A DNA stretch of 64,000 nt from an uncultured Eubacteriales bacterium (lineage in GTDB: Bacteria > Acidobacteriota > Aminicenantia > Aminicenantales > Aminicenantaceae): the NCBI GenBank assembly GCA_964449165.1, contig CAYVAT010000004.1, positions 91,317 through 155,316 of the forward strand. Direction: 5' to 3'. This document shows, one piece after another, positions 2,123 through 43,565 of this stretch (position 1 is its first letter; each line of letters starts with the position of its first letter). The translations under genes and the position numbers were made by a program. The notes under the pieces were generated by a model. The model made no database searches. It was not told where the DNA came from and saw only the letters and a list, made by a program, of their open reading frames with translations.

Positions 2123-3283
2123 TTAGTGTTGTTTCAATTCCCCCTTGTCAATCTTTACCCAGTTCACTTGTGTAATCATCTGATGCAAAGCCGCTTTGGC
2201 CACGGCGACCTGGGTAGCATACTTCGGTGTTGTGCTTGCAGGAAAAGTTGCGAGTGTTGCGTCGCCGACAAGAAAGACATTGAAGTCTTTGCTCAGATTT
2301 TCGTAGCCGCACGTGGTGCTGATGACACACATATCTGTGGCGTATCCGGTCAGTAAAATGTGACGTACACCTTTGCTCTTCAAGTAATCGCGGACTTTTT
2401 GGTACCCTTCATCGTCATAAAACACTATATCGTTTTTTCTCAGCTCGAGAGATTTAACAATCGGAATCGGCAACTGCCCGTATCCTGGTCCGTTATAGTA
2501 GACACTGTCATCCGTGGAGGGAGTGAGACTAAAGTAGCTCTTAACGGGCGTATTTGCGTCAAGTAGAAGGGTTTTTTTCAATGGATTCCCTTCGAACTTG
2601 TGTCTGCTCAACAATTCAGCGAGCAAGTTCTTACCCTGTTCGATGTCCTGTTCTTCAGGCTTTGTTAATATTGAGGAATAGAGAAGCTTTCGAACTTGGT
2701 CTTCCGAGCCCGGCAAAGAATGTCCTACAAGAGAAACATAACCGCGCAACCGGGATAAAAAAGGGTTAATCACGTCCTGAACGTGCATGATCATTAACTT
2801 ATTTTTTTCTGGAGTGCCGAAGAATTTGCACCCCGCAGGTTCGGGCGTTTTCAGTCCATGTCCATCATCGATACCCCAAGGATGGACATTAATAATTGCT
2901 GTTGCTTTTGCCTCAAGTCGATTCTCCATCTCGACAATACCGCGGGCATTGTACCAGTAACGCCAGGACCTAACGAGCATATCGCTGGCCTTCTCGTCCA
3001 CGACCGGCGGTGCTAGAAAACGGTGATCCGATTGCAAAGGTTGGACATATTCTGGATAGTCAGCCAGCAATGGCATAGGATCTTTGATTTTTTCTAAAGT
3101 ATTATAATAATTATTTGTAGATTTTTCTCTTTTATTCAATTCGTACAACGCTTTCAGTTTTTGATTGGCAAACAGTACCAAGGAAATTGTGAGTAGTCCC
3201 CACAAAATTACGGTAATTATGCTTCTTTGTTTATGGGAATTTCTTTTTAGTACTTGCCGCGAATTCTTTACAATTTTAATCAA
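2123..3283 (-). CDS. Membrane-anchored isochorismatase-family (cysteine hydrolase) protein
   Basis: N-terminal TM (IITVILWGLLTISLVLF); C-terminal region HILLTGYATDMCVISTTCGYENLSKDFNVFLVGDATLA resembles the isochorismatase/CSHase catalytic Cys region. Confidence 0.55.
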   Translation of the reverse strand: MIKIVKNSRQVLKRNSHKQRSIITVILWGLLTISLVLFANQKLKALYELNKREKSTNNYYNTLEKIKDPMPLLADYPEYVQPLQSDHRFLAPPVVDEKASDMLVRSWRYWYNARGIVEMENRLEAKATAIINVHPWGIDDGHGLKTPEPAGCKFFGTPEKNKLMIMHVQDVINPFLSRLRGYVSLVGHSLPGSEDQVRKLLYSSILTKPEEQDIEQGKNLLAELLSRHKFEGNPLKKTLLLDANTPVKSYFSLTPSTDDSVYYNGPGYGQLPIPIVKSLELRKNDIVFYDDEGYQKVRDYLKSKGVRHILLTGYATDMCVISTTCGYENLSKDFNVFLVGDATLATFPASTTPKYATQVAVAKAALHQMITQVNWVKIDKGELKQH

Positions 3284-3391: not shown

Positions 3392-4096
3392 TCACTTAAG
3401 AAAATTCAGTATATATTCACAGTGCATAAAATCAAACTCGGTATCGACATCCATCGATTCTTTTTCAGAGATGATTACACCTTTCATGTTCTGGTTATCC
3501 AAGATATTTTCCTTATAAATGATATGAGTTTTCATAGCATCAACCACACCATTGATTCGATAAACAGGCGGCAGAAGTTGACGCTGATAATATTTGCTGA
3601 GTTTTATGTCTCCTGAAATAAGCTCGGCACTTCCGTCTTCGGATAATCTATACATCCAGTAAGGATGGTGAACTCCTTCCACCAGGGTCATCGTCCTTAC
3701 AACATCTGCACCAGTATCTCTTATCTTCTTGACTACCCTGTCAATGATTTGCGGAGTTTTAAACGGGGTGGTAGGTCTTAAGTTTACGACAATCTCAGGC
3801 TCGTAATCATCGTTGTTTTTTAACCATTCAAGGACATGTAAAAAGACTGGCTGGTCAGGAGTGTCACTTTTGGCTAATTCAGCAGGTCTCAGGAAAGGAA
3901 CCTCCGCGCCCCATTTTCGAGCGACCTCTGCTATTTCTTCATCATCTGTTGAAACAACCAGCCGTTCGATTGAAGTCGAGTGCAATGCGGCCTCGATGGT
4001 GTAAGCAATCAAAGGCTTGCCAGCAAGAAGCCTTATGTTTTTCCTCGGAACTCGCCTGGAGCCTCCGCGAGCAGGAATTATGCCCAGCACCTTCAT
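3392..4096 (-). CDS. CMP-nonulosonate (acylneuraminate-family) cytidylyltransferase, copy 1
   Basis: MKVLGIIPARGGSRRVPRKNIRLLAGKPLIAYTIE...VSTDDEEIAEVARKWGAEV matches the NeuA/CMP-NeuAc synthetase-family N-terminus; ATG at 4096 overlaps the upstream TGA (ATGA), so start taken at the internal Met rather than the ORF-track start. Confidence 0.85.
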   Translation of the reverse strand: MKVLGIIPARGGSRRVPRKNIRLLAGKPLIAYTIEAALHSTSIERLVVSTDDEEIAEVARKWGAEVPFLRPAELAKSDTPDQPVFLHVLEWLKNNDDYEPEIVVNLRPTTPFKTPQIIDRVVKKIRDTGADVVRTMTLVEGVHHPYWMYRLSEDGSAELISGDIKLSKYYQRQLLPPVYRINGVVDAMKTHIIYKENILDNQNMKGVIISEKESMDVDTEFDFMHCEYILNFLK

Positions 4097-5229
4097 TTTA
4101 TTTTTTTTACGATATTCTTCAAATTTTCTATTATGTAGTTTTGATCCTCCACCGTAAGACCAACCCACATAGGTAAATCAATGAGTTGCTTCCATGCCTT
4201 GTAGCTCGTAGGATAGGAGTCATTTTTATACCCAAATCTCTTCTGGTAGTAAGGCTGGATGTGAATAGGGGGAAAACTCAATCGAGTGTCGATTCCTCTC
4301 GATTTTAATTCAGATACAACTCTGTCACGATCCAGCCCTTCTTTCAATGAAACGGCATACATATACCAGGCATGGCGATTGACATATTCAGGCACAAAGG
4401 GTGGAGAAATATCAGTGGATTCCCTGAATGCGTCGCTATACCTTTCAGCAATCTTGTTCTTCTCATTCAGAATAAATTCAACTCTCTTGAGCTGCTCGAT
4501 CCCGATAGCTGCTGGAATATCCGTCATACGATAGTTGTATCCCAGGTGAATATGGTGATACCGATAATCCTGTCCCTGGTTGCGAACCTGCCGTGTTAAG
4601 ACAGCTTTTTCATCATCATCGGTTGTGACCATCCCTCCTTCACCTGTTGTGATGTTCTTGTTTGGAAAGAAGCTGAATATATGTAGAGGAGCGATCGATC
4701 CCACCTTTCTCCCTTTATAAACAGCCCCCAGTGATTCTGCACTGTCAGCAATAACAATCAAGCCCTTCTCTTCTGCAAAAGCGAGCAGGTGGTCATAGTC
4801 AACCGGCATCCCATTCATGTCCACTGCAATTATGGCCTTTGTCTTGCCTGTTATTCTCTTCTCGGCATCTTCAAGGGAGATATTATAAGTCTTTGGATCA
4901 CACTCCACCAGAACCGGAATGGCTCGTTCATACAGTACAACATTAGCAGTCGAGATAAATGTTATGGTAGGAATAAGCACTTCATCGCCTTCCTCAATGC
5001 CAGATGAAATCAAGGCAAGGTGCAAAGCCGTCGTTCCACTGTTGGCTGCAATCGCATGTCTAGCTCCCACATACCTCGCAAATTCATTTTCAAATTCCTC
5101 AACCCTCTTCCCCATACTCAACCATCCGGACTTAACCACCTCGTACACAGCCTTAGCCTCTTCCTCACCGAGGTAGGGATTTGCCAAGGGAATATTTTTC
5201 ATTTGTAAGTGCTCCTTCATTTTATTCAT
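4093..5229 (-). CDS. DegT/DnrJ/EryC1/StrS-family PLP-dependent sugar aminotransferase (PseC/LegC/WbpE-like)
   Basis: NPYLGEEEAKAVYEVVKSGWLSMGKRVEEFENEFARYVGARHAIAANSGTTALHLAL...SFFPNKNITTGEGGMV typical of DegT family; true start may be the internal Met at about 5202. Confidence 0.85.
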   Translation of the reverse strand: MNKMKEHLQMKNIPLANPYLGEEEAKAVYEVVKSGWLSMGKRVEEFENEFARYVGARHAIAANSGTTALHLALISSGIEEGDEVLIPTITFISTANVVLYERAIPVLVECDPKTYNISLEDAEKRITGKTKAIIAVDMNGMPVDYDHLLAFAEEKGLIVIADSAESLGAVYKGRKVGSIAPLHIFSFFPNKNITTGEGGMVTTDDDEKAVLTRQVRNQGQDYRYHHIHLGYNYRMTDIPAAIGIEQLKRVEFILNEKNKIAERYSDAFRESTDISPPFVPEYVNRHAWYMYAVSLKEGLDRDRVVSELKSRGIDTRLSFPPIHIQPYYQKRFGYKNDSYPTSYKAWKQLIDLPMWVGLTVEDQNYIIENLKNIVKKIK

Positions 5230-5250
5230 TACTGTAGATGCCTGAATGTT

Positions 5251-6273
5251 TCATCTTATGATTTCTTCGTCATTACCTTCATATCGTGGAATAGTATCAT
5301 CAGTATACCAGTCGGTCGTCTTCATTAATCCTTTCCTTAAGGATGTTTGAGGTTCATATCCCAGAGACCGTATCTTGGCAATGCTCGGGCACCTTCTTCT
5401 TGTTCCTCCCGGGAGACGCTTGCCAGGTATTATATTAATCTTGAATTCCAGCAATCCTGCAATCTCTTTAGCGAGATCAGCAATGGTGATTTCATCTTCA
5501 GTACCAATGTGGTAGATCTCACGGCTCTTGCCGAGAGTAGCACACAGAAGTATTCCTTCTACAGCGTCATCAATGTAACAGAATGACCTGGTCTCTTCTC
5601 CTGTTCCCTGAATCGGAAAGTCAATCTCTTTCCTTCGAAAATTATCACTCAGTGTTTTCATGCGCAGTATGAATTGGGGGATGACATGACCCACTCCCAT
5701 ATCAGGACCGTAAAAATTGTGTGGACGGCATATCACGGTTCTCAAGCCAGTCTTTGCAGTATAATGAATAGCTAACAGCTCGGTTATTATTTTTCCTCCA
5801 CTGTATGAAAATCTTGGATTTTTGACATCAGGAATAATGAGCCTTTCCTCTTCGGAAGTAGGGATATGTGAAGGCTCCTGATACACTTCTGATGACGAAG
5901 TGACTAAATAATTACTTACTCCGCATCTCATGGCTGCATCTAGTGTATTCAAGGCACCCTTGACACCCACCTCAAGCACCCTTTCAGGAATTCTGTAGAA
6001 ATTCTCTGTGCCGTTGATAAAGGCAAGGTGAAACAGGGTATCAATCCCCTTGCATGCTTGATAAACCTGATTGAAATCTGTGACATCTCCTTCTCTGTAG
6101 TCAACCTTCTCCAGATACCCTTCCAGTCTGCGGACCATTCCCCTTGAGTTGTTGTCGAGGATACGTACAGAGGCACCTCCATCCACCAATCTCTTGGTCA
6201 GATTGGAACCGACGAATCCTGTTCCCCCGGTTATCAATATTTTTCCCAAGTTCGCTGTCTTTATCCTCTGCAT
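5251..6273 (-). CDS. NAD-dependent epimerase/dehydratase (extended SDR), nucleotide-sugar modifying
   Basis: ILITGGTGFVGSNL Rossmann motif, YSGGK catalytic YxxxK, about 340 aa. Confidence 0.8.
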   Translation of the reverse strand: MQRIKTANLGKILITGGTGFVGSNLTKRLVDGGASVRILDNNSRGMVRRLEGYLEKVDYREGDVTDFNQVYQACKGIDTLFHLAFINGTENFYRIPERVLEVGVKGALNTLDAAMRCGVSNYLVTSSSEVYQEPSHIPTSEEERLIIPDVKNPRFSYSGGKIITELLAIHYTAKTGLRTVICRPHNFYGPDMGVGHVIPQFILRMKTLSDNFRRKEIDFPIQGTGEETRSFCYIDDAVEGILLCATLGKSREIYHIGTEDEITIADLAKEIAGLLEFKINIIPGKRLPGGTRRRCPSIAKIRSLGYEPQTSLRKGLMKTTDWYTDDTIPRYEGNDEEIIR

Positions 6274-7943
6274 CCTATCCCTATGTATCTAATGTTATTA
6301 ACTGTTATGATATCTTTAGGTTCAAAGGTATACCAGCCATCCACGAAAATACAGTCATTCCTGGCAGAATTCAGCAAATCAAACACATCCATCTTCTTGT
6401 AGCTTTTATGATTATTCATGATCAGCACCACATCTGCATCCTTGAAGCCTTCAGCGATAGAAACCGGCTTCACACCCAATGCTGTTATCTCTTCCTGTGA
6501 CACGATCGGATCATAGCCAAAAAAGGAGCTGTCTCTCATCCCCTTTTTACGGAAGTGGTTTAATAGATCTATGGTAGTTGAGCCTCTTAGGTCAGATGTT
6601 TCTGGCTCTCCCTTAAAAGCAAATCCAATAATAAAGATTTTTAATTTATCGATCTTTTTCTTCAACTCCATGATCTGTTGATATACGTCTTCCACAATAT
6701 GGTAGGGAATAAATTCGTTTATCTGTCTCGAGTGTGAGACCATCCTGGGTTGGTGCTTTAGTTCCTTACATGAGTGGATCAGGAAGTATGGGTCCTTGGT
6801 AAGGCATGCTCCTCCAACACCAGGGCTGGGTACCGGTATCTCATCCCTTACGTATCCCAGATTTGCGGCCTGTACCAATTTAACCATATCCAGTCCCAAT
6901 TCTTTACACACCAGTGCCATCTCGTTTGCGTACCCGAACTTGACATCGCGGAAGGTGTTATTGAGAATTTTAACCATCTCTGCACCTTCCAAAGATCCTA
7001 CATCCACAATTATCGGTGTAATCTCTCTGAATAACCTGTTAACAAGCATCGTGCTTTTCTTGTCATATCCACCTATTATCTGAGGCAGTTCTTTGATTTC
7101 AGATATCGCTCTGCCTTCAATTGTTCTTTCAGGTGCATAGGCCAAATAGTAATCAATGCCTGCCTTGAGGCCTGACAGCTCGTTCAGGATTGGTAACATG
7201 ACCTCTCTTGTTGTTCTCACCGGTACCGTAGAACGTAAGACAACTAGATCGTCCGGCTTTAAGAATTTGGCTATATACCTGGCGGCTTCCTCGATATTAT
7301 CGATAATTGGTTTCTTCGTCTCAGGGTTAACCGGAGTCCCTACTGATACGATATACGTATCCACTTTCAATCCAGAGAGATCAGAAATAGGGATGAGATT
7401 TTTCCCGACGTATCTATGAAGGTAAGCCTCCAGATTGTCTTCATAAAAGGGAACGAATCCATTCTTGATTTTTTCAATCAGCTTGCCGTCTGTATCATAC
7501 CCAAATACCTTAAATCCAAATTCGGCGAGGACAACCGATAATGTCAAGCCGACATAGCCCAGTCCGATCATACAGATCTGTCGGGACTTGGCATCCAGTA
7601 AAACACTCTTATCCTTGAAGGTTATGACTCCTTTAACACGTCCGTTATCGTCTAATACGGGTATCTGGGCATACTTTTCATTGACCAGCTCCAGCATTGT
7701 CTCCCGACTCATGCCTTCTTTGACCACGATAGGAGAGCGATTCATGATGTTTTTTACGGGTTCATCTGCATCATGCCCGCTTAAGAATCCTCTCCGGATA
7801 TCTCCGTCCGTAACGATACCCACCAGGCGGTCCTCGTCATCCACAATCATGGCAAATTTTGAGGCCGATTCATTGATAGCCTTCATGACCTCAAAAATAC
7901 TCTTACCCTCGGGAACCATTATTGATTGGATATCATATAACAT
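6261..7943 (-). CDS. CBS-pair domain fused to UDP-glucose/GDP-mannose dehydrogenase-family enzyme (UDP-N-acetylhexosamine 6-dehydrogenase-like, WbpA/WecC-type)
   Basis: N-terminal about 110 aa CBS pair (IVTDGDIRRGF...GVITFKD), then CMIGLGYVGLTLSVVLAEFGFKVFGYDTD NAD-binding start and conserved GGAC(L)TKD catalytic region. Confidence 0.8.
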   Translation of the reverse strand: MLYDIQSIMVPEGKSIFEVMKAINESASKFAMIVDDEDRLVGIVTDGDIRRGFLSGHDADEPVKNIMNRSPIVVKEGMSRETMLELVNEKYAQIPVLDDNGRVKGVITFKDKSVLLDAKSRQICMIGLGYVGLTLSVVLAEFGFKVFGYDTDGKLIEKIKNGFVPFYEDNLEAYLHRYVGKNLIPISDLSGLKVDTYIVSVGTPVNPETKKPIIDNIEEAARYIAKFLKPDDLVVLRSTVPVRTTREVMLPILNELSGLKAGIDYYLAYAPERTIEGRAISEIKELPQIIGGYDKKSTMLVNRLFREITPIIVDVGSLEGAEMVKILNNTFRDVKFGYANEMALVCKELGLDMVKLVQAANLGYVRDEIPVPSPGVGGACLTKDPYFLIHSCKELKHQPRMVSHSRQINEFIPYHIVEDVYQQIMELKKKIDKLKIFIIGFAFKGEPETSDLRGSTTIDLLNHFRKKGMRDSSFFGYDPIVSQEEITALGVKPVSIAEGFKDADVVLIMNNHKSYKKMDVFDLLNSARNDCIFVDGWYTFEPKDIITVNNIRYIGIGCRG

Positions 7944-8000
7944 CTCAGACTTTCCTTTCTAAAAAACTTATTACAAATAATATTGATTTAAAAATTTCTG

Positions 8001-8837
8001 TCAGAGGAGGTTCATCACCTGCTGTGAATTCATATAATCAGCGAGGGAGATGAGCGAATCATCATCTGGAAGGAACAGGAAATTCTCATTTGAGCGGTTG
8101 AATTGCCTTGGATTTTTGAGTATCGCTCCGGATTTTATTTGAGTGATCATGTAACCCAGTTCTTTCAGCAATTGTGCAGCATGGCTCTTTGAAGGATTGT
8201 CATCCTCCCATTTCTCACGGAGTATTTCGAGCACTATTACAGGTCGGTTCTTGACAATGGTGCTTTTTGCTCCTTCAAGGACAGCGTTCTCATGACCTTC
8301 TGCATCACATTTAATCAGCGAAACTCGTCTGTCAGATAGGGTTGAATAAGCGAGGTTGTCCAGCTGATTGGCAGGGATTTGGATTTTCTGCATATGCTCA
8401 TCATTTTTTATTTGATCTGCAGTATCAACTATGGCTGCAGTAGAGGAGATGGATGTATATGGAGGGACGAACATTTTCTTGGAACAGGCCTTGTTTGAAA
8501 GAGCGATATTCAGGCAAAGAATATTGCTATGGCGTTTTGTTCTTTTTTTTAGGAACTGATAATTCCCTGGGACAGGCTCGAAAGCGACTACAATACCATT
8601 TGGTCCCACTAGATGAGAAAGTCTTATCGTCCAGGCACCAATGTATGCACCAACATCAACAGCAGCAGAATCCTTTTCAACCAGACCTGACACAGAATTA
8701 AGCAAAGTGATCTCATTTGCTGTTAATTCTTCAGTGAGAAGTATATTTATTCTCTTGTAGTTATGCTGTATGAATGATGCGGCCGATTGACCGAGAAGCC
8801 TGTATATTGTTTTACGGAGTGCTCTTGGAATTCTCAA
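8001..8837 (-). CDS. FkbM-family SAM-dependent methyltransferase
   Basis: VDVGAYIGAWTIRLSHLVGPNGIVVAFEPVPGNYQFL...LIKCDAEGHENAVLEGA is the FkbM-domain pattern. Confidence 0.7.
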   Translation of the reverse strand: MRIPRALRKTIYRLLGQSAASFIQHNYKRINILLTEELTANEITLLNSVSGLVEKDSAAVDVGAYIGAWTIRLSHLVGPNGIVVAFEPVPGNYQFLKKRTKRHSNILCLNIALSNKACSKKMFVPPYTSISSTAAIVDTADQIKNDEHMQKIQIPANQLDNLAYSTLSDRRVSLIKCDAEGHENAVLEGAKSTIVKNRPVIVLEILREKWEDDNPSKSHAAQLLKELGYMITQIKSGAILKNPRQFNRSNENFLFLPDDDSLISLADYMNSQQVMNLL

Positions 8838-9715
8838 TCTTCCCTTCTTAAAATATTTTTAACCATCTGATATTGGCTCATGATCTCTGCTGTTTTAATT
8901 CCCCTGCATTCGATGGTTATCGGTATCTTTCCCGGATCAAATCTCCTTACAGCTCTCAGTTGCCAGCAATCCGGGGCTAAAAGAACATGTTCATCTTTCT
9001 TGCCATCATTTCCAGATAAATGGATTTCAAAAATCTTGTCCTGGAAACCTTTGCTAAGGGTTTCTATGAATTCGTCTTTATTGAAACCAAAATAATTTGC
9101 GGAGATAACGAGATGCCCTAAATCTAACAGAAAGCCTATATTGTCGTCCTGTCTGCAATAATCGAGAAACTGAATAATCTCAGCCGGAGTGCAGAGTAAT
9201 GAACTATCAGGAGCATCACTAATCGGAAAGAGGTTCTCCAGACCAATCCTGACTCCCCGCATGACAGCATATTTCCTGATCTCCAAAAGCGATTCATACA
9301 TAATGGCTGATGCATATGCAGGGCTTATACCTGAATAACCATCAGCTACAAAGTAATCACTTTCTTGTGAGGCTCGTAATTCTCTCGTATAGCCTGGATG
9401 CAGCGTATAGCAATCTATTTCTAAATCATGGGCTAGATCGATGCTTCTTTTGACAAAATTGATGCTTTTTAATCTTGTTTCTTTATTACTGCTTGCAATA
9501 TTTAAAACAAAGTCTTTCTTGGATGGAGGGAAATAATTATGAATGAGAAGATTAAGAGAAAATTCTTTCTTTAAGCCTTTCAGTTTTTTCAAGATGTTGT
9601 CAGAATAGCTCAGTCCTCCGCTGAGCTCAATATTACAAATACAAATACTAGCAAGTGTGTTGATAGATTCCTCTAGAGAAGAGCTGTTAACAGCTGCAGA
9701 AGAAACATAGATCAT
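8834..9715 (-). CDS. Xylose-isomerase-like TIM-barrel sugar (phosphate) isomerase/epimerase family protein
   Basis: Motifs YTLHPGY, GLENLFP and LDLGHL spaced as in AP-endonuclease-2/xylose-isomerase TIM barrels. Confidence 0.6.
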   Translation of the reverse strand: MIYVSSAAVNSSSLEESINTLASICICNIELSGGLSYSDNILKKLKGLKKEFSLNLLIHNYFPPSKKDFVLNIASSNKETRLKSINFVKRSIDLAHDLEIDCYTLHPGYTRELRASQESDYFVADGYSGISPAYASAIMYESLLEIRKYAVMRGVRIGLENLFPISDAPDSSLLCTPAEIIQFLDYCRQDDNIGFLLDLGHLVISANYFGFNKDEFIETLSKGFQDKIFEIHLSGNDGKKDEHVLLAPDCWQLRAVRRFDPGKIPITIECRGIKTAEIMSQYQMVKNILRRED

Positions 9716-18784: not shown

Positions 18785-19833
18785 TAGAATTCCTTTAAAT
18801 CATTTTGTGCCTTTCTCAGATCCTCCATCTGACCTATATCCACCCAGTATTCATGTATGGGAAAGGTTGTGACTGGCAGCCCTTTTCTCACCAGCTCTTT
18901 GATTAAATCAGTCATGTCAAATGCTGTATTTGCAGGAATGAGGGATAATGCTTCAGGATTAAGCATGTAAATGCCGGCGTTACAAAGGAACCTCTGGTCG
19001 GGTTTTTCTTCAATCCCTAAAAGATAATGGCTGGATATATTGAGAACGCCAAAAGGAATATTCAACGTGTATTGTGTTGCTGCTACGGTCATAACACATC
19101 TGTGCAGCTTGTGGAACTCGATCAACCTTAGGAAATTGGTCTTTGTTATCACATCACCATTGATCACGAGAAGGGGGCTTGATGGAATCTCTGGTAAAAG
19201 CGTCAAGGCACCGGCTGTACCTAATTCTTTTTTCTCCTTCAGATAGGAAATGTTTACGCCATATTGGGAGCCGTCCTTAAAATAATCTTCAATCATCTCA
19301 GTTTTGTAGTTTAAGGAGATGTAGATATTAACAATTCCGCTTTCTTTTAAGTAATTGATGATATTCTCTAAGATGGGCTTATTACCCACTTTTATCATGG
19401 GTTTTGGAATATTTTCTGTAACAGGTCTTAAACGTTTACCTTTGCCGCCGGCCATAATGACTGCAAATTGATAAGCGTCCAGTTCAGAAACGATGTCTCT
19501 GAGATGTATAATCTTTAATGGACAGCCGTTCCTGTCAAGGATGGGAATGTTCCTGATCAAGTGTTTATTCATCAACTCTTTCAGTTCTTTTTCTGAAGTC
19601 CCATGAGGAGCGGTCAAGGGTTTGGTCCACATAACATCGGTCACAGGCTCATCAATGGAGCATCCTGCGAGAAGGAAGCGTCTGATATCACCGTCTGTAA
19701 CTGTGCCCTTTAAACATCCCTTTGTATCCACAATAAGGGCAATCCCCTGTTTATTTTTATCTATCACTCCCATACACTCGCGAACGGTGGCTGATTCCTT
19801 TAAACAAAATTGATTTATATTTTTGTCCTTCAT
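18784..19833 (-). CDS. CBS-pair + sugar-phosphate nucleotidyltransferase fusion (PtmE-like hexosamine-1-phosphate nucleotidyl/guanylyltransferase)
   Basis: N-terminal CBS pair (TVTDGDIRRFLL...) followed by AVIMAGGKGKRLRPVTENIPKPMIKVGNKPIL NTP-transferase signature; start set at ATG 19833 (ATGA overlap with upstream stop) rather than the ORF-track start at 19947, whose N-terminal extension overlaps the upstream gene. Confidence 0.8.
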   Translation of the reverse strand: MKDKNINQFCLKESATVRECMGVIDKNKQGIALIVDTKGCLKGTVTDGDIRRFLLAGCSIDEPVTDVMWTKPLTAPHGTSEKELKELMNKHLIRNIPILDRNGCPLKIIHLRDIVSELDAYQFAVIMAGGKGKRLRPVTENIPKPMIKVGNKPILENIINYLKESGIVNIYISLNYKTEMIEDYFKDGSQYGVNISYLKEKKELGTAGALTLLPEIPSSPLLVINGDVITKTNFLRLIEFHKLHRCVMTVAATQYTLNIPFGVLNISSHYLLGIEEKPDQRFLCNAGIYMLNPEALSLIPANTAFDMTDLIKELVRKGLPVTTFPIHEYWVDIGQMEDLRKAQNDLKEF

Positions 19834-21038
19834 CAGTATGTCATCCTTTTCTGGAGTAAACGCATATTTATATCGATTGTTGCCAGGACATGCGCTATCT
19901 GTTCTCCTGCATTCCCGGCACCATAAGGATTTTTCGAGTTTCTGCATCGTCTTCTGAATCCTTCATCATCCAAAGCCTTTCTTACCGCATTGATGATTTC
20001 GTCCCTGTTATAACCCACATCAATGACGTTATCTGCTCGCAAACGGCCATTCTGTCTTGACCCGACATTAACCACAGGACACCCCAGGGCCGGTGTCTCT
20101 TTTATGCCACTGGAGGAATTTCCTACGCAGACTCCTCTTCCTGCTCTTCCACAGATATTCAGGACTCCATGATAATTGTAGCGCCCCAGGCTCTTATAAA
20201 TCCGAAGATTCTTGAGTCTCTCTTTCCTTAATTTTTCGATCTCCTTTATAATTCGCCTCCCTCCGGCATCATTATTCGGGTAAGTGACGATAACCTGGCA
20301 GCCTTCCTTTGCCAGGATACGCATGGCTTCTAAAGAGGGCCTGACCTGTTGAGCTGCTTTTTCAAATTCGGTGGTCACAGAGTGCTGGGTAAACAGGATG
20401 ACCGGTTTATCAGGTATGAGACCGTAGGTTTCCTCGATTTCAGCAGGTGTGGCAAAATGACCAGCAACGATGAGGTCAATTGCGGGGAATCCCACATTGT
20501 AGATCCTCCAGCGCTCCTCTCCCAGGAGTCGTACACGCTCTGCTGCCTGTTCATTGGTGGTAAAATGGAGGTGTGACAACTTAGTCATTGCATGACGTAC
20601 AGAATCATCCAGGGCTCCTCCCTCTGTAATATCTCCTCCTTCTACATGGGCGGTGGGAATGTTCATCTGGGTTGCAGTTATGACCGCAGAGAATCCCTCA
20701 AAACGATCAGCATAGACAACAAGGAAATCAGGTCTTATTTTGTCCAGGATGCGGCTCAAACTCAAGATCCCAGAACCAATTGCTTGAGCTGTGGAGAACA
20801 GGGTATCTTCCTCCATTTCAATCTTTACTTCAGCATATACCTTAAAACCGTCTTTCTCGATTTCCTTCAGTGTATAGCCGAAGTCTTCCTGAAGATGTGC
20901 TCCTGAAACCAATAAAAAGTATTCCAGCTCAGGATGGGCGTCTATTGCCTTCAAGATAGGATATTGAAGCCCGTATTCAGCACGGTTTCCTGTAAAAACG
21001 GCAATTTTTCTTTTATTGGAGGGTATTTTTCTAGTCAT
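19833..21038 (-). CDS. UDP/GDP-N-acetylglucosamine 2-epimerase (hydrolysing), NeuC/LegG family
   Basis: KIAVFTGNRAEYGLQYPILKAI...HVEGGDITEGGALDDSVRHAMTKLSHLHF typical of NeuC-type 2-epimerases. Confidence 0.85.
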   Translation of the reverse strand: MTRKIPSNKRKIAVFTGNRAEYGLQYPILKAIDAHPELEYFLLVSGAHLQEDFGYTLKEIEKDGFKVYAEVKIEMEEDTLFSTAQAIGSGILSLSRILDKIRPDFLVVYADRFEGFSAVITATQMNIPTAHVEGGDITEGGALDDSVRHAMTKLSHLHFTTNEQAAERVRLLGEERWRIYNVGFPAIDLIVAGHFATPAEIEETYGLIPDKPVILFTQHSVTTEFEKAAQQVRPSLEAMRILAKEGCQVIVTYPNNDAGGRRIIKEIEKLRKERLKNLRIYKSLGRYNYHGVLNICGRAGRGVCVGNSSSGIKETPALGCPVVNVGSRQNGRLRADNVIDVGYNRDEIINAVRKALDDEGFRRRCRNSKNPYGAGNAGEQIAHVLATIDINMRLLQKRMTY

Positions 21039-22002
21039 ATCCCTTGAGTGTTAATGACAGTCCTTCAGATAATGTATATCTAGGCTTCCATCCAGTAAAT
21101 TTTTTTAGAAGGCTGTTGTCAAGGATCAGCGTTGAATTTGAAGGCTCATAATTACCTTGTGGTTGAACTTCGTTGATGGGAACAGAGCCTATGCGGCTTG
21201 CCATCTTAACCAGATTAAAAACAGTTGTTCCGATCCCAGTTGATAAATTGACAGTATAACATCCATGCTTATCTGTGGAAACAAATAGATGTATCAGGCC
21301 TTCAATAACATCATCGACGTATATGAAATCTCTTATCGGGGTTAAATCACGAACAACAATTCTTTCGCCATTTTTAATTCTTTTTATAACAGTGCTAACA
21401 ACCGTATCTTCATTGCTTCCTAGCCCATAGACATTGCCTAATCTAGCGATAAAACAGGTTATTTTAAAACTCTTTGAATGACCTGTTATTATTGCTTCTG
21501 CGGATAATTTCAAGCCGGCGTAGATATTTTGAGGAGTTGGGGAAGTTTCCTCGGTCACCGGCTGCCTATGATAATCTCCGTAAACAAGCCCGGTGGATGG
21601 GAAAATGAATTTCCCTATTTTGTTTTGTCTGCAAAATTCTAATGCCTGAAAAGTCAGTAATACATGTGATTTGAAGGCCTTTAGCGGATTTTCTTCACAC
21701 TCTCCTGCGTGAGCAATGCCTGCCATATGAAATACAGCGGTTATACCTCTTTTTTCTGACAGCAGTTCAGATAGTGCTTCATCTGATTTCTCAGGAAAAC
21801 CCCCATGGATAAAACGAAAGGAATTATGCAGGATAATTTCGGCAGAATGTTTCGGAAATTGTTTGTTGGAATCAATCCCAACAACAAATGCTCCATTATC
21901 CAGGAGAGCCTTCACTAAACGGCTGCCCAAGAATCCGCTGGCCCCTGTGACCAGGATTCCGTATCTTTCTAAACTACCAGTTTTCGATATCATCGGGGCC
22001 AA
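21031..22002 (-). CDS. NAD-dependent epimerase/dehydratase-family SDR
   Basis: ILVTGASGFLGSRLVKAL Rossmann motif, YAGLK YxxxK. Confidence 0.75.
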   Translation of the reverse strand: MAPMISKTGSLERYGILVTGASGFLGSRLVKALLDNGAFVVGIDSNKQFPKHSAEIILHNSFRFIHGGFPEKSDEALSELLSEKRGITAVFHMAGIAHAGECEENPLKAFKSHVLLTFQALEFCRQNKIGKFIFPSTGLVYGDYHRQPVTEETSPTPQNIYAGLKLSAEAIITGHSKSFKITCFIARLGNVYGLGSNEDTVVSTVIKRIKNGERIVVRDLTPIRDFIYVDDVIEGLIHLFVSTDKHGCYTVNLSTGIGTTVFNLVKMASRIGSVPINEVQPQGNYEPSNSTLILDNSLLKKFTGWKPRYTLSEGLSLTLKGYD

Positions 22003-23011
22003 TCTGAGAGTCCTTTTGAATATCTCTTGCGGCTTTCTTGCCCAGTACCCTGTTAAGTTCGGGTGCTAAAATGGCTCCAGTCCCGGGTCTTTTTACCCAT
22101 GTGTTTTCAAGAGAGAACACTTTTCCAGCCCTTACAGGAGCAATGGCCACAACAGAGGCATAGGCAAAATCGATGACTGGTTGTTCCTCCGGCAGGATAG
22201 TTTTATGGCCACCCAGGGCTGAAAATATTGCTTTTGAACCTTTTACTAGCTCTGTCAGCTCATCTGGCTCTATAGAAATTGGAACGTCGGGACCGGGCCA
22301 CTCACGAGTTATCGTGAAGTGTTTTTCAAGGGCAGCAGCCCCTAATGCCACAGCACCCAGGCATGTGTATATGCCGATGGAATGATCACTTAGCCCGACA
22401 GGTAAACCAAACATATCCTGCAGCTCCTTTATAGCGCCGAGACGAACCTTTTCATATGGGGTCGGATACATAGAAGTGCAATGCATCAGCATGAGAGGTG
22501 TTTCATATTTTTGAATAGCCTTAACTGATTTTTTAATGGATTCCACATCATTCATTCCAGTTGATAATATTATTGGCTTTCCGAACTTGGTGATATGTTC
22601 CAATAGGGGAATATTGTTGCATTCACCTGAGCCGATCTTGAAAGCTGAGACATTTATAGACTGGAGACGGTCTGCTGCCTCTCTGGAAAAGGGAGTACAG
22701 AGGTATATGATTCCTTTGTCTTCACAGTATTTCTTTATCCGTATTTCCTCCTCCCCAGTCAGCTCGCATCTCTTTATTATGTCCCAAAGACGCTCTTCGG
22801 ATATCTCACCTGGTTTCATGTCTGTGGGAATCATTTCAGCCTCTGTGATATGACTTTGAAATTTTACACAGTCAGCCCCTGCCTTGACTGCCGCATCCAC
22901 ACACTGGATTGCTTTATCAAAGCTCCCTTCATGATTGATGCCTACCTCGGCTATTATAAAAGGTGGATATTGAGGGCCGATTTTACGGTGATTTATCTGG
23001 AATTCCATCAT
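21974..23011 (-). CDS. NeuB-family nonulosonic acid synthase, copy 2
   Basis: FIIAEVGINHEGSFDKAIQCVDAAVKAGADCVKFQSH plus C-terminal SAF domain; clearly paralogous to, but distinct from, copy 1. Confidence 0.85.
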   Translation of the reverse strand: MMEFQINHRKIGPQYPPFIIAEVGINHEGSFDKAIQCVDAAVKAGADCVKFQSHITEAEMIPTDMKPGEISEERLWDIIKRCELTGEEEIRIKKYCEDKGIIYLCTPFSREAADRLQSINVSAFKIGSGECNNIPLLEHITKFGKPIILSTGMNDVESIKKSVKAIQKYETPLMLMHCTSMYPTPYEKVRLGAIKELQDMFGLPVGLSDHSIGIYTCLGAVALGAAALEKHFTITREWPGPDVPISIEPDELTELVKGSKAIFSALGGHKTILPEEQPVIDFAYASVVAIAPVRAGKVFSLENTWVKRPGTGAILAPELNRVLGKKAARDIQKDSQIGPDDIENW

Positions 23012-23101
23012 TTATTAACCTCTTTCTTACAGGATAATTGTCGAAGTGAACCATATTAAAAGGAATGATAATAAATTCTTATCTCAAAAGATTCTTTTTT
23101 A

Positions 23102-23956
23102 TCACCAGGCTGTCCAGCCGCCATCGATGACCAGAGTCGCCCCTGTCATGTAGCGGGATGCATCGCTGGCAAGGAAGAGGATGGCACCGTTATAATCTGA
23201 CCAGGTGGCCATTCTTCCTAAGGGAGTGCGTTTCACATATTCTTTATGGAATGAGCTCTCCTGGCCGTCATAGACACCACCCGGGACGAGAACATTGACC
23301 CTGACATTGAATTCTCCCCATGATGCTGCCAGATGCCTTGCTAATCCTATCAATCCTGCCTTGGATGCAGAATAGGAGGCAGGACAATTCAACGGGTCAG
23401 CACCTCCATAAATATTTTTTTCTGGTGAGCAACCTTTGTAGATCCTCTGGTCTGGCCCCACGATGCCGTATATAGAAGAAGTTAAGACGATTGAACCTGC
23501 GCGGGATTTTTTCATGTAGTTTACAGCCTCCCGGCAGCACAAAAAAGCTCCGGTCATATTTCCATTCAAAATACTCTTCCATGTGCTTACAGGATACTGG
23601 TCTAAAGGCCTATAATATCCATCTGGTTTTGTCATGACGTTGTAGATAAGGATATCCACTCTTCCCCAAGAATGATGAATCTTTTTGAATAACTCTTGAA
23701 CCTCCATTTCTTTGCTCGCATCGCATTTCAACCCCATCACAGAAGTGCCTGTCAGAGTCGTAACCTCTTTTGCCACAGCTTTACATTTTCTGGCATCGAT
23801 ATCACCTAGTGCGACATTTGCCTGTGCATATCCTAATGTAATGGCAAACTGTCTCCCCATCTTTCCTGCTCCGCCAATGATGACTGCTGTCTTTCCTTTC
23901 AGGTTGAAGAGGGACTCAACCTTATTGAGTTCGGGTATTTTAGAGTAGTCAGACAT
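23102..23956 (-). CDS. Classical short-chain dehydrogenase/reductase (PtmA-like)
   Basis: KTAVIIGGAGKMGRQFA TGxxxGxG-like motif, YSASK catalytic YxxxK. Confidence 0.8.
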   Translation of the reverse strand: MSDYSKIPELNKVESLFNLKGKTAVIIGGAGKMGRQFAITLGYAQANVALGDIDARKCKAVAKEVTTLTGTSVMGLKCDASKEMEVQELFKKIHHSWGRVDILIYNVMTKPDGYYRPLDQYPVSTWKSILNGNMTGAFLCCREAVNYMKKSRAGSIVLTSSIYGIVGPDQRIYKGCSPEKNIYGGADPLNCPASYSASKAGLIGLARHLAASWGEFNVRVNVLVPGGVYDGQESSFHKEYVKRTPLGRMATWSDYNGAILFLASDASRYMTGATLVIDGGWTAW

Positions 23957-24668
23957 TTGTTACCTCTCTGGATTGTTTCATTAAGAATTCGACAATCTTA
24001 AAATCCAATTCCGTATCAATATGAATGGACCGCTCTTCTGGAACCAGAAAGAGACGAGTACGAGGGGGGATTCGCTTGCCGATATCCATGATTGCCTCTC
24101 TTGAGTATATCCATACGGTGGTGTCAAGATCATACACAGGAGGGCACTCCTGACGGCATCCTATATCCCTGTCTGTGGGCATCAATATCTGGACAAAACC
24201 GTCTTCTAAACAAACCATATTAAAATAAGGGCTGCGGTGCGCTTCACATCCAGAGACTACGGCTTGGCAGGCACCATCATGGTGAAACAGTGACAAGGCT
24301 TCTTCTACGTCCTTGACCTTACGCAGGGGGCTGGTTGGATCTAACAATACTAGTATCTTCACTCTTTCTCTGTATATTTCCTCAACGGACTGAACGGCAT
24401 GCTGCATCACCGGCAGCATCGGTGTGTCATCCTTTGCCAATTCAGGAGGCCTGATAAAAGGGACCTCAGCTCCCCATTTTCTCGAAATTTCTGCGATCTC
24501 CGAATCGTCTGTTGAAACGATTGGCTTATCTATAAAAGAGCAGGCCCGTGCACACTCGACAGTATAAGATATCAAAGGTTTTCCCAAAAGGTGTCTGATG
24601 TTTTTCTTTTTTATACCCTTTGATCCACCCCTTGCAGGAATAAGTCCGAGCACCAGACCTGAATTCAT
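23949..24668 (-). CDS. CMP-nonulosonate cytidylyltransferase, copy 2 (LegF/PtmB/NeuA-like)
   Basis: LGLIPARGGSKGIKKKNIRHLLGKPLISYTVE...VSTDDSEIAEISRKWGAEV. Confidence 0.85.
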   Translation of the reverse strand: MNSGLVLGLIPARGGSKGIKKKNIRHLLGKPLISYTVECARACSFIDKPIVSTDDSEIAEISRKWGAEVPFIRPPELAKDDTPMLPVMQHAVQSVEEIYRERVKILVLLDPTSPLRKVKDVEEALSLFHHDGACQAVVSGCEAHRSPYFNMVCLEDGFVQILMPTDRDIGCRQECPPVYDLDTTVWIYSREAIMDIGKRIPPRTRLFLVPEERSIHIDTELDFKIVEFLMKQSREVTNV

Positions 24669-24676
24669 TCCTAAAC

Positions 24677-25708
24677 CTATTGACTTTTTATCTCAGAAGG
24701 CCTGACAGCCCTCCTGGTTTCTGAAGCTTTATGGGCAGCTAATGCTACCTTAAGAACAGCGATTCCGTCTTCAAGATCAACCGCTGGATTGTCTCCATTC
24801 TTTATCCTGTTCAGGAAGTGCTTCATGTGATCGACAAACATGGTATTCCTCTCGAATGAAGCCGGTTGATCGAAAATTCGGGCCTCTGATGTTCCTTTAA
24901 TGCTGAGCGTAACTTTACCGGAGCTGTAATCCCACGAGAGAGTACCTTTACTCCCCACAACTTCACAATCGCGTCTATAGTAGGGACTTAGGTAGTCCAT
25001 CTCGACTTGAGCCACCAGTCCATTGCCAAATCTCAGCAGAATCTGGGCAACATCTTCTGTTTCAATCTCCAGGTCAGATACATGATCGAGGAATGCGGCG
25101 ACATCGGAAACAGGGCCAAACCACCAGTAGAGATAATCCAATTCATGAATCAGGTCAAAAAGCACCCCACCTCCCTGATCTGATTTTGCACTGTAAGAAT
25201 GGCGGTAATCCTGTTCGGGGCGCCAATCAGGCAGATAGTGTCCAACGCTGGCTCTTGCTAAATAAGGCTTGCCGATTTCGCTCCTTTCCAGAAGCTCTTT
25301 TATTGATTGCAGGCCGGGATGAAATCTCATCATGCATCCAACTTCGATAACGAGTGATTTCTCCTCTCTCAGCCTCTTAAAATCCTCAATCCCTTCTAAG
25401 CTGTTCGATAATGGCTTCTCGAAGTATATATGAATTCCTCTCTTTGCAGCCGCAATGGCTGTCTCCATATGCTGATCAGTACGATTACTGATTATGACTG
25501 CATCTGGCCCGGAATCAAAGGCACTCTCTAAGGACGGAAAGACTCTAATCCCATGTTTTTTAGATAGCCCCTTACTTCTTTCTCCCCTATAACTGTAAGC
25601 AGACACAGACGTTCCTAAAGCAAGCAAATTCTTTATATGTCTGGTCCCGATTGAGCCGGTTCCCACAACAAGAACCTTTAAGTCTTTAAACAACACGGTT
25701 GGCTTCAA
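24677..25708 (-). CDS. Gfo/Idh/MocA-family NAD(P)-dependent oxidoreductase
   Basis: KVLVVGTGSIGTRHIKNL N-terminal Rossmann fold and ...IYFEKPLSNSLEG... consensus of GFO_IDH_MocA. Confidence 0.8.
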   Translation of the reverse strand: MKPTVLFKDLKVLVVGTGSIGTRHIKNLLALGTSVSAYSYRGERSKGLSKKHGIRVFPSLESAFDSGPDAVIISNRTDQHMETAIAAAKRGIHIYFEKPLSNSLEGIEDFKRLREEKSLVIEVGCMMRFHPGLQSIKELLERSEIGKPYLARASVGHYLPDWRPEQDYRHSYSAKSDQGGGVLFDLIHELDYLYWWFGPVSDVAAFLDHVSDLEIETEDVAQILLRFGNGLVAQVEMDYLSPYYRRDCEVVGSKGTLSWDYSSGKVTLSIKGTSEARIFDQPASFERNTMFVDHMKHFLNRIKNGDNPAVDLEDGIAVLKVALAAHKASETRRAVRPSEIKSQ

Positions 25709-26975: not shown

Positions 26976-27058
26976 CCTGTGTCGAACCTCCCGTTTTTAG
27001 ATTTGTGAAATTCTTGCTTCTTCTATAATGACATTCCTTTATGCTGAATTATTATAGC

Positions 27059-28639: not shown

Positions 28640-28877
28640 ATAGAAGATTCCTCGTTTCTTAAAGCAGTATTTTTGATACTTTAATCTAAAGGAATTTATT
28701 TGTCAAAGGCTAACATACCAGTGTTTCAGGGCAAAGTGGTGAGGCTTTTCTCTTCTCCAAATGTCAACTGAAAGATCTTTTTGAGTATGATCAGCATCAT
28801 TGAGGGCGAAGCGAAACAGCTTTGATGTATTGATTCTACAGGGAAGATGTGTTAAATTTTTTTCTGAAGCCACAGAA

Positions 28878-43561: not shown

Positions 43562-43565
43562 CTTA

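Follow-up and report, generated by a model that had tools for sequence, protein, structure and literature searches.

Why should two different enzymes of nucleotide-sugar metabolism, encoded in one locus, each carry a CBS pair at the N-terminus? The window in which they occur, that is, the whole stretch of 64,000 nucleotides that was analysed, contains a minus-strand glycan operon of about 25 kb. The DNA belongs to an Aminicenantes-type bacterium, with Ca. Aminicenans sakinawicola as the nearest genome. An earlier note on this DNA had assigned both enzymes to a single glycan pathway; the operon instead holds two parallel gene sets, both devoted to CMP-activated ulosonic (sialic-acid-like) sugars and each equipped with a separate NeuB synthase and CMP-transferase.

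The two fusions and their operon

The features of the legionaminic-type set and of the second cassette are:

23949..24668 (-), CMP-sugar synthetase of the legionaminic-type set (Pfam CTP_transf_3 3.9e-21; weak PseF-like match, 137.9 bits)
21974..23011 (-), NeuB-family ulosonic acid synthase of the legionaminic-type set (Pfam NeuB 1.1e-79, with SAF; TIGR03569 375 bits, slightly under the cut-off of 399.65)
19833..21038 (-), NeuC/LegG-like hydrolysing 2-epimerase, directly upstream of the PtmE-like gene (TIGR03568 395.4 bits, cut-off 235.9)
19468..19833 (-), CBS pair of the PtmE-like transferase, aa 1-122 (motif GTVTDGDIRR)
18784..19467 (-), sugar-1-phosphate nucleotidyltransferase domain, PtmE-like
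17786..18784 (-), LegB-type NAD-dependent 4,6-dehydratase, directly downstream of the PtmE-like gene (TIGR04180 489.2 bits, cut-off 475)
15908-17746, AsnB-like amidotransferase, in the operon
10338..11393 (-), NeuB-family synthase heading the second cassette (TIGR03569 432.2 bits, cut-off 399.65)
9712..10344 (-), NeuD/PglD-type N-acetyltransferase (TIGR03570 217.7 bits, cut-off 160.8; synteny)
8834..9715 (-), xylose-isomerase-like TIM-barrel protein, a conserved cassette member (Pfam AP_endonuc_2 3.6e-24)
8001..8837 (-), FkbM-family methyltransferase between the TIM barrel and the dehydrogenase (Pfam Methyltransf_21 9.1e-20; TIGR01444)
7611..7943 (-), CBS pair (Bateman module) of the CBS-dehydrogenase, aa 1-111 (CBS1 GIVTDGDIRR; CBS2 GVITFKD)
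6261..7580 (-), NDP-sugar 6-dehydrogenase core, aa 122-560 (Rossmann motif GLGYVG, central dimerisation domain, C-terminal nucleotide-sugar domain, catalytic Cys380 in GGACLTKD)
5251..6273 (-), extended SDR, with a 13-nt overlap at the dehydrogenase stop (PDB matches, synteny)
4093..5229 (-), DegT-family sugar aminotransferase (Pfam DegT 2.4e-121)
3392..4096 (-), CMP-sugar synthetase closing the cassette (Pfam CTP_transf_3 4.8e-29; PseF-like 148.8 bits); its start is probably ATG 4096, which forms an ATGA overlap with the DegT stop, and not GTG 4168

The earlier note's central observation, a CBS pair fused N-terminally to each of two intact nucleotide-sugar enzymes, is confirmed by Pfam, which places true CBS and catalytic domains together in both open reading frames. 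The frame at 6261-7943(-), of 560 aa, combines a CBS match in two stretches over aa ~5-111 (E 6.7e-19) with a complete NDP-sugar 6-dehydrogenase, made up of UDPG_MGDP_dh_N (aa 122-299, 2.2e-40), the central domain (320-410) and the C-terminal domain (438-540). It starts at ATG 7943, which has the ribosome-binding site AGGAAAG ahead of it and is separated from the preceding gene by 57 nt. In the AlphaFold2 model (mean pLDDT 90.2) both modules are well folded, and a short, flexible, low-confidence linker connects them at aa 113-118 (pLDDT <50). The three-domain core, catalytic cysteine and NAD motif are shared with the UDP-HexNAc 6-dehydrogenases WecC, Cap5O and Pyrococcus horikoshii 4r16 and with CalS8, none of which has a CBS pair, and C380, K383 and D384 are invariant. 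The general nucleotide-sugar dehydrogenase model TIGR03026 reaches 345.6 bits (cut-off 189.8), while every named equivalogue model stays under its own (234.7 against 750; 206.9 against 459), so that substrate specificity cannot be transferred to this enzyme.

The second fusion, at 18784-19833(-), consists of 349 aa with a CBS pair in two stretches (4e-16) and a sugar-1-phosphate nucleotidyltransferase (NTP_transferase, 1.6e-42). Its mechanical open reading frame extends to 19947 (387 aa), but 19833, the start given in the earlier note, is correct: it overlaps the stop codon of the NeuC-like gene upstream (TGATG), it is preceded by an AAAGGA ribosome-binding site, and homologues of identical architecture measure 347-360 aa. 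PtmE of Campylobacter jejuni (Cj1329) likewise has an N-terminal CBS pair, for which no role was found in the literature searched. The likeness between the two transferases lies in domain and gene context: the catalytic domain is common to both, the window gene stands among LegB, LegG, LegI and LegF-type genes, and its position between the LegB orthologue and the NeuC/LegG-like gene, whose models both score above cut-off, is that of PtmE. PtmE, a guanylyltransferase specific for GTP and acting on GlcN-1-P, provides legionaminic acid synthesis with the precursor GDP-GlcN, from which GDP-GlcNAc, the LegB substrate, derives (PMC5378307).

Kinship of the CBS pairs and their candidate ligands

The window's two CBS pairs share 37% of residues in an alignment of 116 aa (E 5e-24), and D-G-D-x-R-R plus one proline is invariant in both families. 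In the PtmE-like pair these positions are D47, G48, D49, R51, R52 and P97 (24 homologues), and in the variants listed for 79 pairs taken from the fetched loci neither the glycine nor the second aspartate of the motif changes. Conservation of this ligand-type motif in both families argues for a working, predicted binding site. For both fusions KpsF/GutQ is the top-scoring CBS-bearing NCBIfam family (43.6 and 53.1 bits); the top solved structure for the transferase pair is the KdsD CBS pair 4o9k, with motif GVFTDGDLRR, and Escherichia coli KdsD (GIFTDGDLRR) aligns across the whole pair. The other CBS proteins in the same PDB alignment lack a DGDxRR-type motif. On sequence grounds, the two pairs are thus of one KdsD/KpsF-like subtype, with an aligned G-x-x-T-D-G-D-h-R-R in common. 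The window proteins nevertheless stand outside the KdsD/KpsF/GutQ arabinose-5-phosphate isomerase family, in which the catalytic domain is SIS and the CBS pair is C-terminal, and identity is only 25-27%. In KdsD, too, the module sits on an entry enzyme of a CMP-ulosonic acid pathway, that of Kdo, and 4o9k may contain CMP-Kdo; no paper on this structure was found in the literature searched. Membership in such a subtype speaks for sensing of a pathway nucleotide no less than for adenylate energy sensing.

The reading that we favour, at a probability of roughly 0.55, is that two CMP-ulosonic-acid branches each have, on their entry enzyme, a CBS module that works as an allosteric nucleotide sensor, possibly of the end product; in this proposal the ligand is inferred, as are the substrate and product of the dehydrogenase. 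The PtmE-like transferase would bring a primary metabolite into the legionaminic-type branch, and the NDP-sugar 6-dehydrogenase would catalyse the first enzymatic step from a primary metabolite into the second cassette. The earlier note spoke of two committed-step enzymes; an entry role is reasonable for the dehydrogenase, the only cassette enzyme expected to act on a primary nucleotide sugar, and the transferase occupies the position of PtmE. Each module would bind a ribonucleotide in a cleft lined by the invariant T/S-D-G-D-x-R-R, most plausibly the CMP-activated end product or CMP/CTP, and binding would alter the activity of the attached catalytic domain, so that the end-product level may set the flux into each branch, by inhibition or by activation. 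A functional analogy is offered by mammalian GNE, the entry enzyme of sialic acid synthesis, which is feedback-inhibited by CMP-Neu5Ac: an activated end product controls the entry enzyme of a CMP-nonulosonate pathway, but GNE has no homology to the window fusions and its allosteric site is not a CBS pair. IMP dehydrogenase is also a dehydrogenase with a nucleotide-regulated CBS pair, where bound purine nucleotides influence both activity and assembly, and it is among the top structural matches; its catalytic fold, however, is unrelated (a TIM barrel), its module is inserted and not N-terminal, and the sequence of 1vrd, as aligned, lacks DGDxRR.

Most characterised Bateman modules bind AMP, ADP, ATP or SAM, and the modules could by the same token be generic energy sensors that tie costly glycan precursor synthesis to the energy state of the cell, the reading that the earlier note put first. 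Both CBS1 and CBS2 contain the canonical ribose-binding G-h-h-T-x-x-D, a motif generic to adenosine-ligand-binding CBS pairs, and the nearest folds include adenosine-ligand complexes (MJ0100 with MTA/SAM, PAE2072 with AMP, MgtE with ATP, IMPDH with ATP), although the CBS pairs of IMPDH, MgtE, MJ0100 and KdsD match about equally and the fold comparison does not discriminate. Against this stands the particular subtype that the modules share with KdsD/KpsF and PtmE-like enzymes, and the invariance of two arginines suggests that additional negative charge is recognised, a feature that is not diagnostic. Moreover, on dehydrogenases the module follows NeuB/CMP-transferase clusters and not dehydrogenases generally: among loci with at least 1 kb of flank on each side, NeuB or CTP_transf_3 lies within 10 kb in 48 of 53 CBS-fused loci as against 1 of 8 unfused ones (Fisher p = 1.3e-5, a value that overstates independence because the loci are phylogenetically related). 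Where the flank is at least 3 kb, 39 of 42 loci have NeuB or CTP_transf_3 and 32 of 42 have both. Generic energy sensing is therefore a possible but rather unlikely explanation.

It is more doubtful still that the CBS pairs are purely structural, serving dimerisation or assembly of a higher-order enzyme complex without a small-molecule ligand. CBS pairs commonly form head-to-head or head-to-tail dimers, the linker to the core is short and flexible, and some close dehydrogenase relatives exist and work without the module. The D-G-D-x-R-R stretch, however, is contiguous, polar and charged, unlike a hydrophobic interface patch; it lies where CBS domains hold the ribose-phosphate of the ligand, and identical residues are kept on two unrelated catalytic domains.

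The cassette around the CBS-dehydrogenase

The second cassette runs NeuB, N-acyltransferase, TIM barrel, CBS-dehydrogenase, SDR, aminotransferase and CMP-transferase, with the dehydrogenase gene packed among its neighbours by overlapping stops and starts, and this order is repeated in distant lineages. The cassette was found again in 18 of 42 loci, at 40-86% identity. Gene-by-gene reading or tblastn places NeuB at its head in L002-L004, L008, L026 and L038, among others, and in L006 and L007 a formyltransferase replaces the N-acetyltransferase. In type A loci the TIM-barrel gene adjoins the dehydrogenase; MJ1311 is the sole PDB relative of its product, whose invariant residues include E30, H59, N60, H106, E160, D198, H201, H232 and D241. 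Among the loci examined, the FkbM methyltransferase is inserted only in the window and the identical contig L001, and in none of the 42 other loci.

In type A loci, as in most loci lacking a CBS pair, the next gene after the dehydrogenase is that of the SDR. It is proposed to carry out C4 oxidation and decarboxylation. In the PDB it comes closest to 8vr2, to 8rdg, which is a GDP-sugar 4-epimerase, and to human UXS1, a UDP-uronate decarboxylase (117 bits), with dTDP-glucose dehydratases lower (at most 95 bits). Decarboxylation of the UXS/ArnA type is offered tentatively. The SDR is equally near the 4-epimerase, and its identity to LegB of the window is 32%. For the DegT aminotransferase, the PseC, LegC and ArnB models score 307, 283 and 276 bits, each below cut-off. 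The succession of dehydrogenase, extended SDR, DegT and formyl- or acetyltransferase follows the gene logic of the Ugd-ArnA-ArnB route to UDP-4-amino-4-deoxy-L-arabinose, but that pathway has no NeuB or CMP-transferase, to both of which the products of the window cassette would proceed. No description of the pathway encoded by this cassette was found in the literature searched.

The dehydrogenase might alternatively work outside the ulosonic pathway, making a hexuronic donor (UDP-ManNAcA or UDP-GlcNAcA) for the same surface polymer, with a CBS pair unrelated to NeuB chemistry. Its best family match is to UDP-ManNAc dehydrogenases (NF040825, 234.7 bits), a name also used by JGI annotators, 4r16 and Cap5O rank best with CalS8 among PDB matches to the core (aa 122-560), and the AsnB-like amidotransferase could amidate a uronate. 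Yet the family matches fall far under equivalogue cut-offs, the gene is embedded between the NeuB/acetyltransferase/TIM-barrel and SDR/DegT/CMP-transferase genes in a recurring order, and only one of the eight unfused relatives has NeuB or CTP_transf_3 neighbours, which makes this explanation improbable.

Spread of the fusions

The earlier note had regarded the dehydrogenase fusion as not commonly described, which holds for the literature searched, where no study of it was found; in sequence data the fusion is widespread and not rare. Of the 151 best cluster representatives at 50% identity, at least 89 have it, and so have 71 of 86 fetched loci. More than 100 of the best 120 90%-identity clusters for the dehydrogenase have the identical architecture (43-100% identity), and of the best 120 clusters for the PtmE-like transferase nearly all are fused. 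That a wrong start, a frameshift or an assembly error joined a separate CBS gene to an enzyme is effectively refuted: start choice does matter for the transferase, whose mechanical frame exceeds the real gene, but both frames are continuous and free of internal ribosome-binding sites, neither a stop between the CBS and dehydrogenase domains nor a Shine-Dalgarno sequence ahead of internal Met124 is present in 6261-7943(-), and identical full-length architectures recur on hundreds of contigs that come independently from different samples and from different phyla.

The presence of both fusions in one locus, to which the earlier note had drawn attention, is real in the window, but only three further loci (L002, L008 and L085) have the two at a distance of 10 kb or less. 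The pairing is therefore not a conserved design and is mostly lineage-specific, to Aminicenantes. The CBS-dehydrogenase marks a conserved sugar pathway.

Two CBS fusions in an operon of two gene sets

All genes from about 2.1 to 27 kb of the window run on the minus strand with little space between them, and their operon comprises two sets, each with a NeuB and a CMP-transferase. Its main features are the following:

17786-25708, minus: set 1 (legionaminic-type), with LegB, a PtmE-like protein, a NeuC/LegG-like protein, an SDR, NeuB, a second SDR, a CMP-transferase and a Gfo/Idh/MocA oxidoreductase
18784-19833, minus: the PtmE-like protein of set 1 (349 aa), a CBS pair joined to a sugar-1-phosphate nucleotidyltransferase
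15908-17746, minus: AsnB-type amidotransferase
14648-15895, minus: 415-aa protein, with only a weak match to a prenyltransferase alpha-alpha toroid
11497-14571, minus: two candidate ulosonic-acid transferases, between the gene sets
3392-11393, minus: set 2, with NeuB, a NeuD/PglD-type acetyltransferase, a xylose-isomerase-like TIM barrel, an FkbM methyltransferase, the CBS-dehydrogenase, an SDR, a DegT aminotransferase and a CMP-transferase
9712-10344, minus: NeuD/PglD acetyltransferase, the only one in the operon
8834-9715, minus: TIM barrel
6261-7943, minus: CBS-dehydrogenase (560 aa), a CBS pair joined to an NDP-sugar 6-dehydrogenase
5251-6273, minus: SDR of set 2, its start overlapping the CBS-dehydrogenase stop by 13 nt
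4093-5229, minus: DegT, the only one in the operon
2123-3283, minus: last gene of the operon (386 aa), with a hydrophobic N-terminal segment and a partial isochorismatase-like C-terminal domain

The earlier note had placed two CBS fusions in a single glycan pathway; both do lie in one operon, but that operon holds two NeuB and CMP-transferase sets, the NeuB of set 2 scoring above the TIGR03569 cut-off. From 2123 to 25708 there are two NeuB and two CMP-transferase genes but one DegT and one NeuD/PglD acetyltransferase gene. The legionaminic-type half appears to be without LegC and LegH of its own, and these functions may be common to both sets or encoded elsewhere. Between the sets, the first candidate transferase (488 aa) weakly matches the BFO_1060 family glycosyltransferase of the Tannerella legionaminic acid locus, and the second (531 aa) carries a KpsC/KpsS-type Capsule_synth domain. 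The AsnB-type protein, which scores 665 bits with the XrtA/PEP-CTERM amidotransferase model, below its cut-off, could amidate a sugar carboxylate. G+C content is 0.36-0.37 at 26001-30000, 38001-40000 and 42001-44000, compared with 0.42-0.48 elsewhere in the window, and the sign of the GC skew reverses near 28 kb, at the point where the genes turn from the minus to the plus strand.

The CBS-dehydrogenase carries two PF00571 stretches at about residues 5-111 (Pfam, 68.4 bits against a cut-off of 24, E 6.7e-19), followed at residues 122-540 by PF03721, PF00984 and PF03720, all above cut-off. Its NAD motif (GxGxxG) is GLGYVG at residues 127-132, and its catalytic cysteine is C380 of GGACLTKD, a residue shared by all 23 homologues compared. 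The gene begins at an ATG at 7943, preceded by a 57-nt gap and an AGGAAAG ribosome-binding site. Checked as a possible artefact, the frame is open from end to end, with no stop between the domains and no Shine-Dalgarno sequence ahead of the internal Met124. AlphaFold2 modelled the full-length protein with a mean pLDDT of 90.2 and a low-confidence linker at residues 113-118, which supports a two-module protein. Within the 57-nt gap, a promoter-like site at 7977-8004 on the minus strand (CTGACA, 16-nt spacer, TATTAT, 10 of 12 matches) could act as an internal promoter for the dehydrogenase-SDR-DegT-CMP-transferase half; a promoter and terminator scan of the region gave site counts no higher than the shuffled expectation.

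The dehydrogenase scores 345.6 bits with the nucleotide-sugar dehydrogenase model TIGR03026 (cut-off 189.8), and it belongs to this general family and to no named equivalogue, all substrate-specific models, among them those for UDP-ManNAc dehydrogenase, AglM, TuaD and TviB, scoring far below cut-off. The JGI name 'UDP-N-acetyl-D-mannosaminuronic acid dehydrogenase' is unsupported as a specific assignment, since the UDP-ManNAc dehydrogenase (WecC) models NF040825 and NF008286 give 234.7 against a cut-off of 750 and 206.9 against 459.

In the PtmE-like protein, Pfam finds a CBS pair in two stretches (59.5 bits, E 4e-16) and NTP_transferase (1.6e-42). The mechanical ORF runs to 19947. The correct start is the one in the earlier note, at 19833, which shares a TGATG with the stop of the preceding gene and is served by an AAAGGA ribosome-binding site. 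Homologues found by search are 347-360 aa long. Both fusions are thus confirmed by profile domains, gene starts and open frames, and by the two-module model of the dehydrogenase. In NCBIfam the PtmE-like protein has sub-threshold matches to many transferases, none higher. Its direct neighbours are LegB (489 bits) and the NeuC/LegG-like gene (395 bits), both above cut-off, and upstream of them, at higher coordinates, the operon also contains a NeuB and a CMP-transferase. In architecture and context the protein matches the definition of PtmE, whose C. jejuni representative probably also carries an N-terminal CBS pair. PMC5378307, citing Schoenhofen 2009, describes PtmE as a GTP-specific GlcN-1-P guanylyltransferase that serves legionaminic acid synthesis by making GDP-GlcN, the precursor of GDP-GlcNAc, which is the LegB substrate. 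A search with the PtmE-like protein gave 7687 matches (E<=1e-10), and among the 120 best clusters almost all were CBS-fused.

A KdsD-type CBS pair and its putative ligand

Aligned over 116 residues, the two CBS pairs share 37% identity (E 5e-24). Across 23 CBS-dehydrogenases (44-84% identity) only D46, G47, D48, R50, R51 and P95 of the CBS region are invariant, and the equivalent D47, G48, D49, R51, R52 and P97 are invariant in 24 PtmE-like proteins (43-83% identity). The motifs G-h-h-T-x-x-D and DGDxRR are conserved in the CBS pairs, the glycine and second aspartate of DGDxRR being constant among the motif variants listed for 79 CBS pairs from the loci. For both window proteins the best CBS-bearing NCBIfam family is KpsF/GutQ (TIGR00393), matched through the CBS part alone (model positions 169-268, 43.6 and 53.1 bits against a cut-off of 203.7). 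The best solved match to the transferase CBS pair is that of KdsD, 4o9k (motif GVFTDGDLRR), a structure that may have been solved with CMP-Kdo bound, and E. coli KdsD (GIFTDGDLRR) aligns with both window proteins over the whole CBS pair. The DGDxRR motif is absent from MJ1225, PAE2072 and IMPDH, aligned in the same output as 4o9k. The two pairs are one subtype, which KdsD/KpsF have in common with them. The likeness is confined to the CBS pair: no SIS domain was found in either window protein, and neither is therefore a member of the KpsF/GutQ/KdsD isomerases. A homologue search with the CBS pair alone returned only three fragments.

The earlier note had read the fusions as allosteric control of flux, and this interpretation is borne out in part, in that two intact entry-type enzymes each bear a homologous KdsD-type Bateman module with a strictly conserved polar motif. 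The module would bind a ribonucleotide and modulate the attached enzyme, and the favoured ligand would be the CMP-activated end product, or CMP/CTP. A CMP-type ligand is favoured because the same module is found on the entry enzymes of three CMP-ulosonate routes, KdsD being the entry enzyme of CMP-Kdo synthesis, because the dehydrogenase module tracks CMP-transferase genes, and because GNE, an entry enzyme controlled by its end product CMP-Neu5Ac, is a precedent for this type of control. The main rival is that the CBS modules sense adenylates. In fold searches of the CBS model, the CBS fold (beta-alpha-beta-beta-alpha, repeated twice) superposes on solved CBS pairs; such searches confirm the fold and do not separate subtypes, and they are therefore silent on the ligand. 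A purely structural role of the modules is less likely, given which CBS residues are conserved. The CBS-dehydrogenase is best seen as a variant, and a widespread one, of two kinds of protein already known, the Bateman-regulated enzyme and the NDP-sugar dehydrogenase.

Distribution and genomic context of the dehydrogenase fusion

The earlier note had also taken the dehydrogenase fusion to be not commonly described, which agrees with the literature searched, where no published study of the fusion, of either CBS module or of the cassette was found, but the fusion is abundant in sequence data. When clusters at 90% identity were ranked, more than 100 among the first 120 combined CBS with all dehydrogenase domains, at 43-100% identity, with Syntrophaceae, Omnitrophica, Elusimicrobiota and an archaeon among the source names. 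HMMER was also run exhaustively against 1.84 billion representatives (50% identity), and 89 of the 151 best had the CBS pair, as scored with an HMM of the CBS region. A metagenome scan found relatives encoded by at least 422 of at least 600 pattern-matching stretches, and the 86 loci fetched around dehydrogenase relatives include 71 that are CBS-fused and 10 that are clearly unfused. Relatives without the CBS module are found at 53-57% identity, and a neighbour-joining tree of the dehydrogenase cores, with at least 20 parsimony changes and one pure unfused clade of 33, is too crude to choose between a single fusion event and several. The closest genome to the window, Ca. Aminicenans sakinawicola (86% identity), provided the sole locus with a CBS-dehydrogenase from the genome-collection scan. 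Six CBS-dehydrogenases from outside the window (P0134, P0144, P0148, P0149, P0152 and P0266) are 791-985 aa long, with about 350-415 additional N-terminal or 270 additional C-terminal residues that matched no Pfam family. Neither fusion architecture was found among solved structures in a structure search.

The fusion is specifically tied to NeuB and CMP-transferase clusters, one of these genes lying within 10 kb in 48 of 53 fused loci compared with 1 of 8 unfused ones (Fisher p = 1.3e-5, a generous value because the loci are phylogenetically related). The order of set 2, minus the FkbM gene, recurs in loci at 40-86% identity, in 18 of the 42 loci flanked by 3 kb or more; L006 and L007 have a formyltransferase in place of the acetyltransferase, and several loci include an additional Gfo/Idh/MocA gene. 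There is no NeuC- or PseG-type gene in the cassette. Its TIM barrel, the constant neighbour of the CBS-dehydrogenase in these cassettes, has the uncharacterised MJ1311 as its only solved relative and invariant, metal-site-like residues (E30, H59, N60, H106, E160, D198, H201, H232 and D241), and the step that is missing, sugar release or epimerisation, may be its task. In a second context, exemplified by L085:9983-13411 and found also in L064, L070, L073, L081 and L082, the CBS-dehydrogenase is directly followed by a CMP-transferase (CTP_transf_3) and then a short NeuB of 323 aa with no SAF domain, SDR and DegT being absent nearby. In this context the ulosonic acid made may be another one, or the dehydrogenase may work at another stage. 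Among the loci examined, the two fusions are no more than 10 kb apart only in the window, L002, L008 and L085, so their co-location is mostly a trait of the window's lineage.

Proposed pathway and its significance

The series 6-dehydrogenase, SDR, DegT aminotransferase and N-acyl transferase in set 2 resembles the Ugd-ArnA-ArnB logic. The CBS-dehydrogenase would turn an NDP-HexNAc into a uronate, which the adjacent SDR would oxidise at C4 and decarboxylate, followed by transamination and N-acylation. The sugar would then be released, with the conserved TIM-barrel protein standing in for NeuC or PseG, before NeuB condenses it with PEP and the CMP-transferase activates the product. A 4-keto-uronate is a beta-keto acid and is expected to lose CO2; an aminopentose would result, and the product of the NeuB step would have eight carbons. 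The proposed product is a 5,7-diacylamido-3,5,7-trideoxy-octulosonic acid, a 'nor' analogue of legionaminic or pseudaminic acid whose diacetyl form would be C12H20N2O8 (about 320.12 Da).

What suggests the decarboxylase is the order of the genes. The SDR has the motifs GGTGFVG (GxxGxxG) and YSGGK (YxxxK), scores 117 bits with UXS1 and 117.5 bits with the GDP-sugar 4-epimerase 8rdg, and has the LegB model as its best NCBIfam match (140.9 bits), being 32% identical to the LegB of the window. As GDP-sugar 4-epimerase and LegB-type enzymes are equally close, a UXS/ArnA-type decarboxylase is not a firm assignment from sequence. In the full reading, the CBS-dehydrogenase would be the signature enzyme of an octulosonic-acid pathway that was not found described and that would be widespread in uncultured bacteria and marine metagenomes, with the KdsD-type CBS pair as a feedback sensor shared by the Kdo, legionaminic and new CMP-ulosonate pathways; this joint proposal is tentative, with a chance of being right of roughly one in five.

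Sialic-acid-like sugars influence bacterial surfaces, flagella, and host or phage recognition, and to our knowledge the bacterial control of flux into these costly pathways is largely unknown. The occurrence of one CBS subtype on the entry enzymes of the Kdo (KdsD), legionaminic (PtmE-like) and a third, dehydrogenase-led pathway provides a single testable regulatory hypothesis, namely that the same sensor module serves three catalytic domains unrelated to one another. The CBS-dehydrogenase is also a simple sequence marker of a conserved cassette without the usual NeuC or PseG step, and the DGDxRR motif combined with the dehydrogenase core allows genomes to be mined for this pathway, whose cassette may yield a sugar class not yet described.
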